A stretch of 4,961 nt of DNA from a virus (taxonomy: Duplodnaviria > Heunggongvirae > Uroviricota > Caudoviricetes). The stretch is from positions 1-4,961 of IMG/VR virus record IMGVR_UViG_2698536450_000012. One strand, written 5' to 3'. Under the pieces are notes generated by a model. It made no database searches and was not told where the DNA came from. It saw only the letters and a program-made list of their open reading frames with translations. Of this stretch, positions 1-4,961 are shown piece by piece. Positions within the stretch are counted from its first letter, which is position 1; every line of letters begins with the position of its first letter. The translations under genes were made by a program, and so were the position numbers.

Positions 1-84
1 AATGGCAGTGGCTACAGCGACGGCACCTTCTTCCTTTATTGCCTGTTCGTCCGGAATGGCGGCGCAAATAAAGACTTTACTCAT
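1..84 (-). CDS. Hypothetical protein, 5' end only (gene continues past the left edge of the window); N-terminus MSKVFICAAIPDEQAIKEEGAVAVATAI
   Basis: ATG at 84..82 on the minus strand, with a GAGGT Shine-Dalgarno (reverse complement of 93..97) 8 nt upstream. The frame is open to the window edge (28 codons). It is absent from the ORF track because no stop lies inside the window. Confidence 0.5.
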   Translation of the reverse strand, partial: MSKVFICAAIPDEQAIKEEGAVAVATAI

Positions 85-163
85 TTTGTTTTACCTCATT
101 ACAGATTTAAGGGTGAACAAATCCCTGCCATTGCTGGCATATAAAAATGAAACTGGATATTAA

Positions 164-367
164 TTACGGCGCTGTTTTTAATCCTGCCGGGATTTCGTTA
201 TTGTCCATGTGAATAACTTTATCGACCGGATAACAGTTGCCGGGAATTTTCTGTTCCGCTGCGGCAGCCATGCATTCTTTCATTGAGTTGTACATGCCGG
301 TGATTGCATCAAGCGACTCACCAGTATTGAGATGTACAGTCAGAATGAGTATGAATAATGTGTTCAT
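164..367 (-). CDS. Small hypothetical protein (67 aa from the ATG) with a hydrophobic N-terminal segment (MNTLFILILTVHLNTG), possibly a signal peptide or membrane anchor, and two Cys in the C-terminal part
   Basis: ORF track 164..373. The ATG at 367..365 overlaps the TGA stop of the upstream ORF (366..364) as ATGA, which suggests translational coupling. GGAGAG lies 5 nt upstream. The track start at 373 is a GTG two codons further up. Confidence 0.55.
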   Translation of the reverse strand: MNTLFILILTVHLNTGESLDAITGMYNSMKECMAAAAEQKIPGNCYPVDKVIHMDNNEIPAGLKTAP

Positions 368-552
368 CGCCACTCTCCGAAAATACCGAGTTTAAGAAGG
401 GCAATTCTGGAGAGTATGGAATTGTCATTCAGCAGGTAGGGTTCATATTTTCTCATATTGATTGCATCCTCGGTGAAATCCCTGTTACTGAGCAGAACAC
501 CAATATTAAAGCACCCGTCAGACGTATTAACGTTTGGTAGTGACGTTTCCAT
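364..552 (-). CDS. Small hypothetical protein, 62 aa, no recognisable domain
   Basis: ATG at 552..550 lies 10 nt downstream of the rha stop (565..563). A GAGGA Shine-Dalgarno overlaps the rha stop codon with a 7-nt spacer. Same strand and operon context as rha. Confidence 0.55.
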   Translation of the reverse strand: METSLPNVNTSDGCFNIGVLLSNRDFTEDAINMRKYEPYLLNDNSILSRIALLKLGIFGEWR

Positions 553-562
553 TATCGCGTCC

Positions 563-1120
563 TCAACAATGAATTTTTAGCAATTGCTCCACAGTCATAT
601 TTTTAATTGCGCTCCGGTTTACAAGAGTCCATCCTTGTTTCTCCAGATAAAACCGGAAGGTATCCAGGGTGCAGACCATTGCGCCGTCAGGAACGGTTTC
701 AGTGAATTTGATATTGCCGTGTTCGTCGAGACGGATAACTAGGGTGCGTCCGTCCCCGTGAATCATTTTGTCGGGAGACGGGGCGTTATTCTGGCGCAGT
801 TCTTCCTCCATGCGATCGAACTCAGCGATGTAGGCTTCTTTGAAAGTTGCGGCTTTTTTACCTGTGAACCCCATCACCAGGAAAACGAAGCCGTTTTTGG
901 TGATTTGGTACATGGGGCGTTTTTCGCCTTTGGCGTCGGTGTAGGTAACGGGCGTAAAATTGCGCTCGTTAAAATCTTCAGAGCATTCTAGCGTTTCAAT
1001 TTTGCGCAGAACGTCCTTGTGCATTTTGCGGAAGAACTCTGCAACCGCAACAGACGTAGTGACAGCGCGACCATTTTCGATGGTTACGTCAGGGTGAGAA
1101 AGGGTAGGGATAGTAGCCAT
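563..1120 (-). CDS. rha: Phage regulatory protein, Rha family (N-terminal Rha domain MATIPTLSHPDVTIENGRAVTTSVAVAEFFRKMHKDVLRKIETLE...KGEKRPMYQITKNGFVFLVMGFTGKKAATFKEAYIAEFDRMEEEL, plus a C-terminal domain of unknown function)
   Basis: Recognised from memory as the Rha (Phage_pRha) family. Start placed at the ATG at 1120..1118, which has an AAGAGG Shine-Dalgarno (reverse complement of 1129..1134) 8 nt upstream. The ORF track extends the frame to 1417, but that extension contains a terminator-like hairpin with a U-tract and has no domain-like sequence. Confidence 0.8.
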   Translation of the reverse strand: MATIPTLSHPDVTIENGRAVTTSVAVAEFFRKMHKDVLRKIETLECSEDFNERNFTPVTYTDAKGEKRPMYQITKNGFVFLVMGFTGKKAATFKEAYIAEFDRMEEELRQNNAPSPDKMIHGDGRTLVIRLDEHGNIKFTETVPDGAMVCTLDTFRFYLEKQGWTLVNRSAIKNMTVEQLLKIHC

Positions 1121-1150
1121 AATGGCAGCCTCTTGGTTGAGTATTAATAA

Positions 1151-1189
1151 CTCACCACCAAGGTTTTCCACGACCATAAGGGTGGTGAG
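1151..1189 (-). promoter_or_regulatory. Perfect 9-bp inverted repeat (CTCACCACC / GGTGGTGAG) with a 21-nt loop, in the rha 5' leader about 20 nt upstream of the Shine-Dalgarno
   Basis: Read directly: 1151..1159 is the reverse complement of 1181..1189. As RNA on the minus strand the loop contains GUGGAAAAC. Confidence 0.4.
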
Positions 1190-1288
1190 GCGTACAGGGG
1201 TGGAAATACCGGTCAACCAAGAATCCGGCCAGCCTTGCAGCTGCCCTGCACGCCCCACCATAATCTGAATGTGGCTGTGCTTGACGCA

Positions 1289-1312
1289 TAAAAAAACCGC
1301 CTGAGCGCGGTT
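1289..1312 (-). terminator. Candidate intrinsic terminator on the minus strand (stem aaccgc/gcgguu, 6-nt loop, then U7)
   Basis: On the plus strand an A-run (1290..1296) precedes the hairpin at 1295..1312, so on the minus strand the hairpin is followed by UUUUUUU. The stem is short (4 GC and 2 AU pairs), so strength is moderate. Confidence 0.5.
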
Positions 1313-1372
1313 ATGCGCTTGATTGAATTCCGGGTTTCCACGCCCGGCACCCGTTTTATGAGGTGCAGGTGC

Positions 1373-1401
1373 ACTATAATTCCACCCGTTCTGGTTTTCA
1401 A
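1373..1401 (-). promoter_or_regulatory. Candidate sigma70 promoter on the minus strand: -35 TTGAAA (1401..1396), 17-bp spacer, -10 TATAGT (1378..1373); predicted start near 1366
   Basis: Both hexamers match consensus at 5 of 6 positions with the optimal 17-bp spacer. It lies about 75 nt upstream of the terminator at 1289..1312. Confidence 0.4.
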
Positions 1402-1904
1402 TAGCTACATTCAACATTTTCTCTTACCTTTCATCACCGAAGTGAACTTTGTTGATGCGGTGCCTGGTGCCTCCAGGTGACGTTAACCAGTTAACAATTA
1501 ACGCCGGATACAGAGAATCCACCCATAACACTGTTTTTGGTTTTAACTGTTCCGCGTGCGCTGAGCCGCATTCACCGCATCACAAAATTCACTTTAAAAA
1601 GGGCGGCAGAGCAGCCACGGAGTAAAACTGATACTGCCAAACGTCACCAGAAAATTGATAACAGAGGGCGTTGCAGCGGGGTTGTCACTTAAGCGTATGG
1701 TCAACCTGACAACCCGGTGTCCTCAACGGGGAAGGAATAACCCCGCCATACTTACCGCCGCGCCATTTCGCGGAGTGCCACAACCGGAAGCGCACGGTCG
1801 ACGAAAATTTAACGACAGGCTATCTATGAACCAGCAACCTCGCCGTGCACTTTCGCGTTATGCTCTGACTTTTCAGAGAAATATCCTTTCAGTAAACTGT
1901 CAGT

Positions 1905-1954
1905 GCCGGATGTTCACCCGTGTCCGGCGCACGCACTCCACTTCACCCGTGGAG
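1905..1954. other. Two adjacent stem-loops with a shared loop motif TTCACCCGTG (plus strand) / CACGGGUGAA (minus-strand RNA)
   Basis: Hairpin A has stem 1905..1910 / 1923..1928 (gccgga/tccggc) and a 12-nt loop. Hairpin B has stem 1936..1941 / 1949..1954 (ctccac/gtggag) and a 7-nt loop. The 10-mer TTCACCCGTG occurs at 1913..1922 and 1942..1951. Confidence 0.45.
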
Positions 1955-1993
1955 AACTCCTTAATTACCAACCTTAGCTTCGTTGGTTAGCTA

Positions 1994-2212
1994 TTAACGC
2001 GGGTATGTAATCATTCTGGCAATGCTTAATGCCGCTGCTTTTTCCAGATTGGTGATATCCTGCTCCAGAGCGGACAGATTTTCAGCCTGCTTAGCCCTGG
2101 CTTCATTGGCCCATTTCAGGTCCTGCGCTGCCTTAATTTTCTGGTGCATCCACTCATAAAGTTCATCATCGGTATAGTCTGGCGCGATGATGACGGGTTC
2201 TCGTTTCTGCAT
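1994..2212 (-). CDS. Small hypothetical phage protein, 72 aa (MQKREPVIIAPDYTDDELYEWMHQKIKAAQDLKWANEARAKQAENLSALEQDITNLEKAAALSIARMITYPR)
   Basis: ATG at 2212..2210 with an AAGGAG Shine-Dalgarno 5 nt upstream. The sequence looks protein-like (charged, helical). Same orientation as the leftward early operon. Confidence 0.65.
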   Translation of the reverse strand: MQKREPVIIAPDYTDDELYEWMHQKIKAAQDLKWANEARAKQAENLSALEQDITNLEKAAALSIARMITYPR

Positions 2213-2283
2213 GTCGGCTCCTTGTGGTTAGCGTTGCCTGCTTTTAACCACGTCAGGCGAGGTGGTATCCTCTGAGGGGTCTG

Positions 2284-2640
2284 TTACTCGAGAGGAAATT
2301 GGTTATGAATACAATCAAGTTTTCTTGCCCAGAATGTGGCGGCGAAGTCTTTGACACATCCTTTAAACCGCATGGCTCTGACAGTTTCGCGGGAGCCATC
2401 TGCAAAAATTGTGGTCACCTTGTAACTGAAGATGAGTCCTCGCAGTTTGATGACGAAATCGTTGACAATATCTTCGGTGCACTCACCAGAGACTTTCTGA
2501 AGTAAAGGCGCATACCGCTTAGTTACCGCTCTGATAATTCTTACCTGTCCGGCAATGGCGCTGATATCAATATAAAGCGCCATCGCTGTTTCTTTGCTGA
2601 TCCCTGGATGCCTTCCATTCTGATGTTTGACTTCGCCCAC
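2284..2640 (-). CDS. Alternative call: 118-aa ORF immediately downstream of the leftward early promoter (GTG start), fully overlapping the zinc-ribbon ORF on the opposite strand
   Basis: GTG at 2640..2638 with an AGAGGA Shine-Dalgarno and a 7-nt spacer, about 70 nt downstream of the candidate leftward promoter. Against it: 5 of 9 Arg codons are AGA/AGG, there is no recognisable domain, and antisense frames in the same register often stay open by chance. Confidence 0.3.
   Translation of the reverse strand: MGEVKHQNGRHPGISKETAMALYIDISAIAGQVRIIRAVTKRYAPLLQKVSGECTEDIVNDFVIKLRGLIFSYKVTTIFADGSRETVRAMRFKGCVKDFAATFWARKLDCIHNQFPLE
2305..2505 (+). CDS. Small C4 zinc-ribbon protein, 66 aa (CPEC ... CKNC), with an acidic C-terminal tail (EDESSQFDDEIVD)
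   Basis: ATG at 2305 with an AGAGGA Shine-Dalgarno and an 8-nt spacer. Two CxxC pairs are 23 residues apart. Codon usage is ordinary. It is antisense to, and in the same codon register as, the minus ORF 2284..2640, so only one of the two may be real. Confidence 0.55.
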   Translation: MNTIKFSCPECGGEVFDTSFKPHGSDSFAGAICKNCGHLVTEDESSQFDDEIVDNIFGALTRDFLK

Positions 2641-2718
2641 TGAGAAATCCTCTGTTTCCCCTTAACGCCGGGGTAGCGGAACTAAGACCTGTCGCACCGT
2701 TGTGCTTTGATGGAATAC

Positions 2719-2747
2719 ATTGTTCTCTCTAGGTGAACAAAAGTCAA
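2719..2747 (-). promoter_or_regulatory. Candidate leftward early promoter (pL-like) on the minus strand: -35 TTGACT (2747..2742), 17-bp spacer, -10 AACAAT (2724..2719), overlapped by an operator-like inverted repeat TGTTC-N9-GAACA (2721..2739)
   Basis: Same hexamers, spacer length and embedded inverted repeat as the rightward promoter at 3249..3277. It sits immediately downstream of the repressor terminator. Confidence 0.5.
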
Positions 2748-2761
2748 CATGATGAATACGC

Positions 2762-2791
2762 AAAAAAAAAAAAAAACCGCCTTGCGGCGGT
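2762..2791 (-). terminator. Strong intrinsic terminator of the repressor transcript (stem accgcc/ggcggu, GCAA tetraloop, then U15)
   Basis: On the plus strand A15 (2762..2776) is followed by ccgcc ttgc ggcgg (2777..2790). On the minus strand this is a GC hairpin followed by 15 U, about 25 nt downstream of the repressor stop (2813). Confidence 0.8.
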
Positions 2792-2812
2792 ATGATTCTG
2801 TAAAATAAAGAA

Positions 2813-3202
2813 TTATTTTTGTCGTGTTATTGGGTCGACGTATTCTGAGTAAAATTCGGTCAGTTTTTGGAGTCGCATTTGAAAAGCTGCCAGCATATTT
2901 CTACGTTCTACAGGTGGCAGGTTTCTGTAAACATCAAGCAGGGCCTTCTCGTCATCATCAAGCGCCTCTCTATTTGTCTCTTCTTTCCCTGTCAGTAGCC
3001 AAGAAAGGGAAACGTTTGTGGCTTCTGCAATTTTGGCTGCGGAATCTTTACTGATTGTTCCTCTTTTTTTCCATGCGTTGACTGATGAACGACCTACACC
3101 AGCGATACGCGCTAAATCTGAACCACTTAAATGATGCTGTTGAGAGATCGTATCTAACCTTTCTGCTAGCGGGGTGTCGTATTGCTTTTTTCTCATGTCC
3201 AT
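2813..3202 (-). CDS. Prophage repressor, XRE-type helix-turn-helix (cI / RacR / DicA-like), 129 aa
   Basis: Helix-turn-helix motif LSGSDLARIAGVGRSSVNAWKKRG. Divergent from the Cro-like gene. A consensus TATAAT ends 7 nt before the ATG, which predicts a leaderless transcript with no Shine-Dalgarno, as for lambda cI from pRM. Confidence 0.85.
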   Translation of the reverse strand: MDMRKKQYDTPLAERLDTISQQHHLSGSDLARIAGVGRSSVNAWKKRGTISKDSAAKIAEATNVSLSWLLTGKEETNREALDDDEKALLDVYRNLPPVERRNMLAAFQMRLQKLTEFYSEYVDPITRQK

Positions 3203-3208
3203 TTGGCA

Positions 3209-3236
3209 ATTATAACCGTTCAGTGAACACTAACAA
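3209..3236 (-). promoter_or_regulatory. Candidate repressor-maintenance promoter (pRM-like) on the minus strand: -35 TTGTTA (3236..3231), 16-bp spacer, -10 TATAAT (3214..3209); the spacer contains the palindrome GTTCAgTGAAC (3218..3228)
   Basis: Hexamers and spacing read directly. The predicted transcription start coincides with the A of the repressor ATG at 3202. Confidence 0.5.
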
Positions 3237-3248
3237 TTCCTCGAGGTG

Positions 3249-3277
3249 TTGACTTGTGTTCGTTTTAAGTGAACAAT
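3249..3277 (+). promoter_or_regulatory. Candidate rightward early promoter (pR-like): -35 TTGACT (3249..3254), 17-bp spacer, -10 AACAAT (3272..3277), overlapped by an operator-like inverted repeat TGTTC-N9-GAACA (3257..3275)
   Basis: Back-to-back with the pRM-like promoter. A GGAGG Shine-Dalgarno (3297..3301) precedes the ATG at 3306. Confidence 0.5.
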
Positions 3278-3305
3278 CGTTGTGGTTAGTTGAACTGGAG
3301 GTTGT

Positions 3306-3581
3306 ATGACAGCATTGGACAAAGCAATAAAGATTGCTGGTGGTATTCGTCCGCTAGGGCGTGCAATAGGGGCTTGGCCATCTCAAATACACAAATGGGC
3401 AAATGAATACAATGGTCGAGTGCCGACGGGAGAACGGGTTCGTCAAATTTATATTGCAACTGGGGTTACTCCTCATGAATTGCGACCAGATTTATACCCG
3501 AATCCAACTGACGGGTTGCCTGCTGGAGATAAGGCTAACACACCAAATACACCGGAGTTGATTCATGAAAATCAAGCATGA
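3306..3581 (+). CDS. ydaS: Cro-like DNA-binding regulator, YdaS family, 91 aa
   Basis: Divergent from the repressor, with a GGAGG Shine-Dalgarno. The motif GVTPHELRPDLYP is typical of the YdaS / Cro-type family as recalled from memory. Confidence 0.8.
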   Translation: MTALDKAIKIAGGIRPLGRAIGAWPSQIHKWANEYNGRVPTGERVRQIYIATGVTPHELRPDLYPNPTDGLPAGDKANTPNTPELIHENQA

Positions 3582-3990
3582 ACACATCCGCATGGCGATG
3601 AATGCCTGGGCGCGTCCTGATGGCGAAAAAGTTCCAGCAGCTGGAATAACCCAGGCTTATTTTGAGTTGGGTATGACGTTTCCTGAACTGTATGACGACA
3701 GCCATCCGGAAGCCCTGGCTCGCAATACACAGAAAATTTTCCGCTGGGTAGAGAAAGACACCCCTGATGCAGTTGAAAAAATTCAGGCGTTGTTACCAGC
3801 GATCGAAAAGGCAATGCCACCTTTGCTGGTGGCCAGAATGCGCAGCCACAGTTCAGCTTATTTTCGGGAGCTGGTGGAGACGCGGGAGCGACTGGTGAGA
3901 GACGCTGATGATTTTGTCGCAGTGGCAATCGCCGGTTTCAATCAGATGAACCGTGGTGGCCCGGCAGGAAATGCTGTGGCAGTACATTGA
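3565..3990 (+). CDS. ydaT: YdaT-family regulator, 141 aa, in the cII-equivalent position
   Basis: The N-terminus MKIKHEHI and the C-terminal ...AVAVH match what I recall of Rac YdaT. The start overlaps the ydaS-like stop by 17 nt. GGAG lies 8 nt upstream. Confidence 0.8.
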   Translation: MKIKHEHIRMAMNAWARPDGEKVPAAGITQAYFELGMTFPELYDDSHPEALARNTQKIFRWVEKDTPDAVEKIQALLPAIEKAMPPLLVARMRSHSSAYFRELVETRERLVRDADDFVAVAIAGFNQMNRGGPAGNAVAVH

Positions 3991-4061
3991 CTGACAATAG
4001 CCATATCGAATCGCTTCCGGCAACTCGTGAGTAAAATGATTCGGTATCAGAAGAGGTGAGT

Positions 4062-4961
4062 ATGGCTAACGCCTGGCTCAGATTATGGCATGACATGCCA
4101 AATGACCCTAAGTGGCGAACAATTGCCAGGGTGTCAGGGCAGCCAATTGCAACAGTGATGGCAGTGTATATCCACCTCCTGGTGAGCGCGTCACGAAATG
4201 TCACGCGAGGTCACATTGATGTCACGACAGAAGATTTGGCAAGTGCGCTCGACGTGACAGAAGAGGTAATTGATTCAATTTTGCAGACGATGCAGGGGCG
4301 GGTACTTGATGGTGATTTAATCACTGGATGGGAAAAACGCCAGGTGCTGAAAGAGGACAACGGCAATATTTCGCAAACCGCAAAATCTCCTGCAGAGCGC
4401 AAGAGGGCGCAGCGAGAGAGGGAAAGAAAGCGGGAACAAAATGGCGATTGTCACGGCGCGTCACGAAATGTCACGCACATGTCACGACGAGTCACGACAG
4501 ATAAAGATACAGATAAAGATACAGATCAAGAAGATCAAAACACTATGGTCCATGGCGTAAAAAACGCCACGAACCAGGCAGGGGATGTTCAGACCGTCAA
4601 TCCTGGTCAGCCAGCAGGCACGACACCGGAAGCCGATTCAGCGTATGCGCTGAAAGCCGATTCGGGCGCTGTGCAGCAGGTGATGACCGCAAGGCCGGAG
4701 CAATCACACCAACTGCAGCAGCCTGAAGCCGATTCCGCCATTCAGCGGGAAGCCGATCGGGTAGTCCCGGAAAGCACCGGGCAGTCTGTGGGACGAGTGG
4801 ATTATCCGGATGTGTTCGAACAGGTCTGGCGGGAATACCCGTTGCGTGCCGGGGCAAACCCGAAGAAATCCGCTTTCAGTGCCTGGAAGGCCAGATTGCG
4901 CGAGGGGGTGCCACCAGAGACCATGCTGGATGGTGTGAGGCGTTACGCGAGATACCTGGCG
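4062..4961 (+). CDS. Phage replication initiation / replisome-organizer-type protein, 3' end outside the window (300 codons open to the edge); YdaU / lambda-O-equivalent position; family assignment unverified
   Basis: ATG at 4062 with an AGAGGTGA Shine-Dalgarno. Translated by hand with no stop to position 4961 (MANAWLRLWHDMPNDPKWRTIARVSGQPIATVMAVYIHLL...). Two iteron clusters lie inside the gene. It is absent from the ORF track because it has no stop. Confidence 0.8.
   Translation, partial: MANAWLRLWHDMPNDPKWRTIARVSGQPIATVMAVYIHLLVSASRNVTRGHIDVTTEDLASALDVTEEVIDSILQTMQGRVLDGDLITGWEKRQVLKEDNGNISQTAKSPAERKRAQRERERKREQNGDCHGASRNVTHMSRRVTTDKDTDKDTDQEDQNTMVHGVKNATNQAGDVQTVNPGQPAGTTPEADSAYALKADSGAVQQVMTARPEQSHQLQQPEADSAIQREADRVVPESTGQSVGRVDYPDVFEQVWREYPLRAGANPKKSAFSAWKARLREGVPPETMLDGVRRYARYLA
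4190..4230. repeat. Iteron cluster 1: four GTCACG/GTCACA repeats at 10-11 bp spacing (4190, 4200, 4210, 4221)
   Basis: Read directly: gtcacgaaat gtcacgcgag gtcacattgat gtcacgacag. The spacing is helically phased. Confidence 0.6.
4450..4541. repeat. Iteron cluster 2: five GTCACG repeats (4450, 4460, 4470, 4481, 4491), then an A-rich tract with a tandem 12-bp repeat CAGATAAAGATA x2 (4498..4521) and two GATC sites (4524, 4533); candidate phage origin of replication
   Basis: Read directly. The 18-mer GCGTCACGAAATGTCACG is shared between the two clusters (4187..4204 and 4457..4474). Iterons followed by an AT-rich segment inside the initiator gene mirror the lambda origin within gene O. Confidence 0.6.

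Follow-up and report, generated by a model that had tools for sequence, protein, structure and literature searches.

C4/CI-type systems have been noted in lambdoid prophages (PMC3632133) and phage-inducible islands (PMC10111431), and the RNAs IsrK and C4 have already been equated with the seqA and CI RNAs of P4 (PMC3632133; PMC10111431). P4 itself has a constitutive promoter of internal position; read-through allows translation of Kil, and Eta translated from an upstream promoter suppresses termination (PMC10111431). The C4 precursor of P1/P7 is described as an RNase P substrate in the passage of PMC11143913 that cites Hartmann (1995), and in these phages the excised C4 is known as a stable RNA of about 77-79 nt. 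For the Salmonella prophage Gifsy-1, the base pairs G28-C162 and G31-C159 have been proven by compensatory mutation (Hershko-Shalev et al., 2016; PMC4825925). Translation of anrP in that prophage rose more than 100-fold when IsrK was provided in trans, and the authors' own account is that IsrK opens the orf45 ribosome binding site (PMC4825925). Here we compare these systems with a locus in a 4,961-nucleotide (nt) stretch of DNA from a Caudoviricetes virus (IMG/VR record IMGVR_UViG_2698536450_000012, positions 1 to 4,961; hereafter the window), in which a perfect 9-base-pair (bp) inverted repeat at 1151-1189 lies upstream of the gene rha. Positions 1118-1401 of the minus strand very probably form an antisense-RNA immunity cassette of the kind found in P1/P7 (c4-icd-ant), P4 (seqA-cI-seqC in eta/kil), and Gifsy-1 (isrK-orf45-anrP). 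Within the known C4/CI antisense immunity family the locus is unexceptional and belongs to the P4/Gifsy-1 subtype; it is a textbook phage regulatory device and not itself a discovery. The one possibly new point is the covarying helix made by the two arms of the repeat, which would be a testable addition to the mechanism.

RNA genes were called by an Rfam scan against curated thresholds, which detected an IsrK-like RNA followed by a C4 RNA. Read along the minus strand, the cassette comprises a promoter, IsrK (seqA-like, with sites a1 and b1 and a terminator), the C4 RNA, sites a2 and b2, and rha (Table 1). The IsrK-like RNA folds into three hairpins (hairpin 1, the hairpin presenting a1, and an intrinsic terminator) and carries site b1 besides; a terminator scan placed the terminator stem at 1312..1295, followed by a U run. 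The structure marked as a candidate terminator in the initial annotation is indeed one, more exactly that of the IsrK/seqA-like small RNA recognized by the Rfam isrK model. The putative promoter matches the sigma-70 consensus at 10 of 12 positions; it falls within a 284-amino-acid open reading frame (ORF) and is placed as in Gifsy-1, where TTGACA-17-TATATT lies 5' of the isrK start. What defines isrK and P4 seqA is thus found here together: a model score above threshold, a promoter-like site, and an intrinsic terminator.

The C4 RNA matches its Rfam model (RF01695) over the full model length at 1265..1178 on the minus strand, scoring 78 bits (threshold 45; E = 1.1e-14). Its ends were set by alignment to the annotated c4 of the P1 immI region, a 77-nt RNA ending in ...CCACC. 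The structure consists of a 17-bp closing stem enclosing two hairpins, an unpaired a' segment before the 3' strand of the stem, and a CC tail at the 3' end. The minimum-energy fold has a free energy of -47.4 kcal/mol (z = -5.05) and is retained when the 273-nt precursor is folded.

The pairing partners that characterize the C4 family are present on both sides of this RNA. Downstream, a2 and b2 are complementary to a' and b', with b2 lying over the ribosome binding site of the first gene; upstream, a second copy of the targets (a1 at 1341..1335, b1 at 1326..1318) lies on the same transcript. The a' segment pairs with a2 and with a1 over 7 nt each, and b' pairs with b2 at 10 of 10 positions. The calculated duplex energies are -12.8 kcal/mol for a':a2, -16.1 for a':a1, -16.2 for b':b2, and -10.0 for b':b1. 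The Shine-Dalgarno (SD) sequence of rha, AAGAGG, sits 9 nt before the ATG and is predicted to be mostly paired, and the product of the gene that it serves has a domain of the Bro/antirepressor network, Phage_pRha. Separately, we observed a second 8-nt complement of a' (GGGUGGAA) at 1380-1387 on the minus strand, overlapping the -10 element of the putative IsrK promoter. The GGGUGGAA site would be transcribed only on RNAs that come from further upstream and is common to the closest relatives.

These complementarities extend to homologous loci and change in step. The region is matched by 176 phage records, and the tandem of isrK and C4 was present in all 14 homologues fetched. A pattern scan of viral contigs, keyed on the C4 5' strand only, yielded 104 unique C4 loci. 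Of the 104, 102 have an a2 site with at least 7 Watson-Crick pairs located 3-10 nt past the C4 3' end, and this site changes together with a'; an a1 site of at least 7 nt is found in 94, at about -77 from C4. Sites b2 and b1, each with at least 8 pairs, occur in 94 and 95 of these loci, respectively. The a site occurs in 17 variants and the b site in 43, and every variant matches the C4 of its own locus, such that a', a2, and a1 covary, as do b', b2, and b1. Such covariation in specificity is the pattern expected of a heteroimmunity determinant. Some viral contigs carry tandem C4 cassettes, with three copies at a spacing of 656 nt in L051 and two copies each in L035 and L036. The tandem copies differ in a'/b' specificity (e.g., CUGCGAA, ACGCCAA, and GUUCCAA in L051), which suggests stacked immunity modules.

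The inverted repeat consists of CTCACCACC (1151-1159) and GGTGGTGAG (1181-1189), separated by a 21-nt loop; the initial annotation had reported it with these coordinates and as fully complementary, and we confirmed both. That annotation had further noted a near-identical loop motif in a second hairpin, which lies 5' of the repeat in the transcript (CCGGG-TTTCCACG-CCCGG, 1330-1347). This observation holds as well, since GGTTTTCCACGACC at 1162-1175 and GGGTTTCCACGCCC at 1332-1345 match at 86% over 14 nt; GGTTTCCACG, which had been placed at 1332-1341, is located at 1333-1342. The repeat had also been assigned to the rha leader, which needs correction: its upstream arm is the C4 3' end and forms half of the C4 closing stem. 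By itself the repeat is not statistically exceptional. The window contains three perfect 9-bp inverted repeats with loops of 3-40 nt, compared to a mean of 0.85 per dinucleotide-shuffled window, and 47% of the shuffles contain at least one; an explanation of the repeat as a statistical outlier is thereby ruled out. Folded in isolation, the hairpin has a free energy of -17.6 kcal/mol (z = -2.5), a stability that 4 of 200 shuffles matched. We judge the repeat to be real because it is conserved in homologues with compensatory covariation, not because of its statistics within the window.

Conservation of the repeat was evident across the homologous loci. Pairing over at least 7 bp between the final 7-11 nt of C4 and a sequence 15-23 nt downstream is possible in 92 of the 94 non-P1-type loci, and in these 92 loci the a2 site always lies in the loop of the helix; a control region of the same size reaches 7 bp in 1 of 94. 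The 5' arm and mature C4 share the same 3' terminus in most loci (offset 0), and the two unpaired C residues of the C4 tail pair with a conserved GG. An alignment of 55 sequences (A1) shows the helix to be 92.9% paired, with double changes at three pairs; in its column pair 12-52, U-A occurs 42 times, C-G 7 times, and U-G 6 times, and the two positions are never unpaired. The inner stem around a2 covaries too, between G-C and A-U. RNAalifold, run on an alignment without the C4 5' strand, returned a single consensus helix, which joins the C4 tail to the downstream arm (hereafter IR3). In loci L122 and L061, a C-to-U change in the C4 tail is accompanied by a G-to-A change in IR3; the C4 5' strand is unchanged and the IR3 position is outside the leader hairpin.

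When the IsrK hairpin served as the key of a second, independent scan, 80 unique P4-like loci were recovered. Their arms form the pairs GCUAUCGCC/GGCGAUAGC, GCUACCACC/GGUGGUAGC, GCCACCACC/GGUGGUGGC, and GUCACCGCC/GGCGGUGAC. The first of these is found in P4 itself as a perfect 9-bp helix, in which 5 of the 9 pairs are compensated relative to the window. In a 41-sequence alignment joining both sets of loci (A2), the helix is 96.5% paired, both sides have changed at 6 of the 9 pairs, and no C-A combinations occur. The alignment contains 46 double-change cells compared to 13.4 in shuffles; none of the 500 shuffles reached the observed value, and control arms slid along the alignment were 18-57% paired. 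The cells come from related sequences and represent fewer independent events than cells; nonetheless, several distinct arm types are present. The initial annotation had proposed that lack of conservation in homologous loci would speak against its reading of the repeat and loop motif, and both the repeat and the logic of the loop motif are conserved. The G-U pairs in homologues indicate that the constraint acts on the minus-strand RNA rather than on duplex DNA.

The arrangement of these elements suggests how the cassette would work. A constitutive-looking promoter inside the ash-rha gene would initiate transcription, and most transcripts would end at the IsrK terminator, producing a short RNA with a1 and b1. 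Read-through transcripts would include C4, which RNase P is expected to excise. The a' segment of C4 would pair with a2, in the loop of the repeat, and the b' loop with b2 over the rha SD; this pairing would block translation of rha and permit Rho-dependent termination, the latter by analogy with P1 and P4. We infer on these grounds that the element controls rha expression and that C4 represses it. Because IsrK carries the same two sites (a and b) as the leader, it would act as a decoy that competes for C4.

The helix would add a further step, in which the 3'-terminal 9 nt of C4 pair with the conserved leader element IR3 when the C4 5' strand is unavailable. This could be so when a ribosome sits on the conserved AUG in that strand, or on a transcript without the C4 fold. 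The helix would show a2 in its loop and let b' reach b2 on the same molecule. We propose only tentatively that the C4-tail/IR3 helix, maintained through compensatory changes across a range that extends from P4 satellites to lambdoid prophages, may be an undescribed functional part of immunity. If so, it would be the middle pairing of four segments, i.e., the C4 5' strand, the C4 3' strand, IR3, and the IR3 partner by b2, and this arrangement would link the folding of a processable C4, translation from the 5'-strand AUG, and presentation of a2 and b2 in cis or in trans. We found no description of the tail-leader helix in the literature searched, a search that left out the key P1/P4 papers of the 1990s, where it may already be drawn.

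Folding models were used to ask when such a helix could form. It cannot coexist with the outermost 7 bp of the C4 closing stem, 17 bp in all, and this stem wins in both the 273-nt and the 148-nt folds; the repeat as the stable structure of the transcript is ruled out. If the C4 5' strand, i.e., the first 24 nt, is blocked, the best fold of both the window and Gifsy-1 contains the helix together with b':b2 on the same molecule. In these models, the helix most likely belongs to an alternative fold adopted when the C4 5' strand is occupied. In leader-only folds, IR3 pairs with its downstream partner at a mean probability of 0.83, and the SD is more sequestered than in shuffled controls (unpaired probability 0.15 vs 0.39). 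Adding the C4 3' strand to the leader shifts the mean unpaired probability of the SD from 0.15 to 0.20, and clear opening is confined to L009-type loci; these values do not support a simple switch by which the helix would free the SD of rha. A short CCUU, CUCC, or CCUCU element 5' of IR3, read from the sequences, faces the SD.

Several observations weigh against the cassette or against a role for the helix. The promoter is predicted from a consensus match, and the Rfam c4-a1b1 model scores below its threshold (25.5 vs 46.7), isrK spanning the same sequence. At equilibrium, folds of the complete precursor give the helix a median probability of 0.0, and the energetic penalty for forcing it is 7.3 kcal/mol in the window, compared to 6.4 in P4 and 3.7 in Gifsy-1. 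Even with the 5' strand blocked, the helix is not the best fold of P4. After excision of C4, the 5' arm and the leader are on separate molecules. The rha SD is predicted to be sequestered with or without the helix, which does not fit a simple on/off switch of the ribosome binding site. P1-type loci have only a 5-bp equivalent, CCUGC/GCAGG.

Other explanations of the conserved arms have to be weighed against an intramolecular helix. The same pairs could be made between two molecules, with the free CC tail and outer stem strand of mature C4 pairing with IR3 on the mRNA as a constant third contact; such a tail-target contact is equally compatible with the base pairs. It would account for the 5' arm ending at the mature C4 3' end and including the unpaired CC opposite the conserved GG, and also for IR3 forming Watson-Crick pairs where the C4 5' strand wobble pairs (e.g., in P4 and L122); moreover, the best co-linear duplex of C4 and leader combines the helix with b':b2. 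However, about 7 bp of the 17-bp stem must open for this contact, and the order of the elements (a' then tail; a2 then IR3) would lead to a pseudoknot-like complex instead of a continuous duplex. IsrK, the other target of C4, is without an IR3-like element. On balance we think a contact of this kind unlikely. Even less probable, in our view, is that the helix has no function and that IR3 is kept either as the 5' arm of a leader hairpin sequestering the SD or by the Ash reading frame (LTT ... GGE), its match to the C4 tail arising because IR3 resembles the C4 5' strand. This would agree with the leader-only folds described above, with the helix being thermodynamically disfavoured in the full precursor, and with the Pfam Phage_ASH match to the translation of this stretch, whose frame is open in 65 of the 104 loci. 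It is harder to reconcile with compensatory double changes at 6 of 9 pairs and the absence of C-A combinations, with the paired tail and IR3 changes in L122 and L061 at a constant 5' strand and outside the leader hairpin, or with P4, where the arms are entirely different yet perfectly paired. In addition, the nucleotides of Gifsy-1 'orf45' are reported to be conserved and its amino acids variable (PMC4825925).

The initial annotation had suggested a shared binding partner for both hairpins, with an antiterminator, an operator-binding repressor, or cleavage by RNase III as candidates. Two hairpins with near-identical loops upstream of one gene do point to one partner, and in this respect the suggestion was right. 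The partner is an RNA (C4 a') and not a protein, because a perfectly complementary a' is encoded between the hairpins and covaries with both loops; an RNA kept in step with the loops over 17 variants would be unneeded for a protein. The G-U pairs in the stem exclude a palindrome in duplex DNA, and a 9-bp stem, below the usual substrate length, is too short for RNase III. Sites bound or cut by a protein are therefore highly improbable on these three grounds. We place equally little faith in the repeat as the stem of an intrinsic terminator or attenuator before rha: the U/A-rich stretch UUAUUAAU does follow the 3' arm in the window, but the terminator scan finds none at 1151-1189, the loop is 21 nt long, and the U-rich tract is not conserved (e.g., UAAACAAAAC in Gifsy-1).

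Table 1. Features of the rha cassette and of the upstream DicF gene, in window coordinates
Feature	Position	Strand	Details
DicF small RNA gene	1652..1601	-	Rfam 67.3 bits vs threshold 48; upstream of cassette, same strand
Long 284-amino-acid ORF (Ash + Rha domains)	563..1417	-	Runs across IsrK, C4, a2, and b2 and continues in frame into rha
Putative sigma-70-like promoter of IsrK/C4 transcript	1373..1401	-	-35 TTGAAA 1401..1396, 17-nt spacer, -10 TATAGT 1378..1373
IsrK / P4 seqA-like small RNA	1290..1366	-	Rfam isrK RF01394, 69.2 bits vs threshold 50, E = 7.9e-14
a1 target, GUGGAAA	1335..1341	-	8-nt loop of 1330-1347 hairpin; complementary to a'
b1 target, UCAAUCAAG	1318..1326	-	Nine pairs with b' loop, one of them G-U
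C4 / P4 CI-type antisense RNA, 79 nt	1181..1259	-	Corresponds to mature C4 in extent
b' loop of C4 hairpin 2, UCUUGGUUGA	1213..1222	-	10/10 complementary to 1131-1140; loop in Rfam alignment
a' single-stranded C4 segment, UUUCCAC	1200..1206	-	Unpaired in Rfam alignment and fold
Repeat 5' arm, CUCACCACC	1181..1189	-	Last 9 nt of C4: 7 nt of closing-stem 3' strand plus CC tail
a2 target, GUGGAAA	1165..1171	-	Loop of inverted repeat; flanked by inner stem GGU/ACC
Repeat 3' arm (IR3), GGUGGUGAG	1151..1159	-	Can pair with C4 3' end, or with 1138-1142 (leader hairpin)
Alternative IR3 partner, ACUCA	1142..1138	-	Immediately 5' of / overlapping b2
b2 target, UCAACCAAGA	1140..1131	-	Overlaps rha Shine-Dalgarno AAGAGG 1134..1129
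Nested rha frame	563..1120	-	ATG 1120..1118; begins MATIPTLSHP; Pfam Phage_pRha E = 4.6e-31

The cassette is embedded in an open reading frame. The rha frame is open upstream to an ATG at 1417, giving 284 amino acids, and Pfam finds two domains in this ORF: Phage_ASH at amino acids 14-109 (52.6 bits vs a cut-off of 26) and Phage_pRha at amino acids 120-205. The Ash match (PF10554) is the translation of the IsrK and C4 RNA genes. The nested architecture of the P4 eta/kil type is thus found here from sequence, with ORF 1417..563 running in frame through IsrK and C4 into rha, and the N-termini of the nested products are alike (MATIPTLSHP in the Rha of the window, MATTLTPSHP in P4 Kil). Among the 104 loci, the frame reading AUU-AUG-GUG-GGG is stop-free from -140 to +45 in 65; the other two frames average 3.5 stops each. 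RefSeq annotates the 284-amino-acid form, and several GenBank phages carry coding sequences of about 380 amino acids across the RNAs. The long proteins annotated across IsrK and C4 bear names such as 'Rha', 'antirepressor', 'peptidase', and 'transcriptional regulator'. Annotation as single long proteins, in RefSeq and many GenBank phages, hides the RNA system. We also considered a 45-amino-acid ORF at 1289..1152 as a homologue of Gifsy-1 'orf45', whose UGA inside GGUGGUGAG would explain the conservation of that arm. This candidate was rejected because the true orf45 is the AUG-GUG-GGG frame and because many loci have GGUGGUGGA at that place, with no stop.

The window as a whole is a lambdoid immunity region, with cI-like, cro-like, cII-like, and O-like genes. 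The cassette lies within a Qin-like operon in the order ydfC, dicF, ash-rha, dicB, ydfD, and in a 92%-identical E. coli genome a pseudogene annotated as a dicB 5' fragment is found at the equivalent place just upstream. From the gene order, an IsrK-C4-rha module appears to have been inserted into a Qin-like ydfC-dicF-dicB-ydfD operon. A sub-threshold STnc100-like match (36.6 vs 47) follows DicF at 1448-1589 on the minus strand, and another perfect 9-bp inverted repeat, GGGTTGTCA-N19-TGACAACCC (1679-1687 / 1707-1715), lies between ydfC and DicF. Elsewhere in the window, clusters of short GTCACG-type repeats at 4190-4240 and 4450-4500 on the plus strand, inside the O-like replication gene (e.g., cgtcacgaaatgtcacgc...gtcacgac), look like origin iterons as far as their sequence goes. 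At 2760-2792, a run of 15 A residues followed by the hairpin CCGCCTTGCGGCGG constitutes a strong intrinsic terminator on the minus strand, just downstream of the cI-like repressor gene.

The known systems resemble the cassette to different degrees. The immI region of P1/P7 has the same order of elements (a1, b1, c4, a2, b2, and the start codon, as in the P1 GenBank annotation), the same C4 fold with a single-stranded a' and with b' in a loop, b2 over the ribosome binding site of the first gene, and an antirepressor-type gene downstream. Unlike the window, P1 has no annotated intrinsic terminator or IsrK-type hairpins between a1/b1 and c4, and no reading frame runs through c4. Its a2 begins 3 nt past the C4 end compared to 9 nt here, its first gene is icd rather than rha, and its tail-leader helix comprises 5 bp (CCUGC/GCAGG).

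Gifsy-1 is, like the window, a lambdoid prophage, and has IsrK, a terminator, C4, and b2 over the SD of the antirepressor gene; an 8-bp tail-leader helix again places a2 in its loop. The tandem of isrK and C4 is present in Gifsy-1 (L137, 34131-34316, minus strand) as in P4, and the published 'orf45' coincides with the C4 RNA (Rfam, 69 bits), its start being the AUG of AAUUAUGGUGGGG inside the C4 5' strand. On this map, G28 and G31 fall in a1 (UUGGCGU, nt 26-32), and C162 and C159 fall in a' (ACGCCAA, nt 158-164); the experimentally proven pairs are therefore a1:a'. The pair G114-C175 belongs to the closing stem of C4, and helix d-II of the authors' 'structure B' is that stem. The processed Gifsy-1 RNA STnc1160 is C4 on this map. 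The more than 100-fold rise in anrP translation is, by analogy, the effect that would be expected of a C4 decoy. Placed on the C4 map, the IsrK experiments permit a simpler reading, in which IsrK bears decoy copies of the C4 targets, and this reading predicts the same behaviour in many cassette-bearing E. coli prophages, Stx phages included. The Gifsy-1 study did not use the C4 a/b framework, and its structural constructs stopped at nt 180, before IR3 (PMC4825925). Gifsy-1 differs from the window in that the frame of its C4 5'-strand AUG ends in an AUGA overlapping the anrP start (translational coupling), whereas here that frame is fused to rha.

P4 is the closest match. It has an isrK-type seqA with a terminator hairpin, followed by CI, which scores 74.9 bits with the C4 model. 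Its a2 lies in the loop of a perfect 9-bp helix to which the CI 3' end contributes one arm; a second partner for IR3 is located just ahead of b2, and CUCC pairs with the SD. The nested gene begins MATTLT..., and, as in the window, no stop interrupts a long frame across the RNAs. The two differ in that P4 is a satellite and the window a lambdoid, Qin-like prophage, in their a'/b' specificities and helix arms, and in the nested gene, which encodes the 65-amino-acid Kil in P4 and a 185-amino-acid Rha-domain protein here. One RNA family serves immunity and heteroimmunity in P1-like plasmids, P4-like satellites, phage-inducible islands, and lambdoid prophages.

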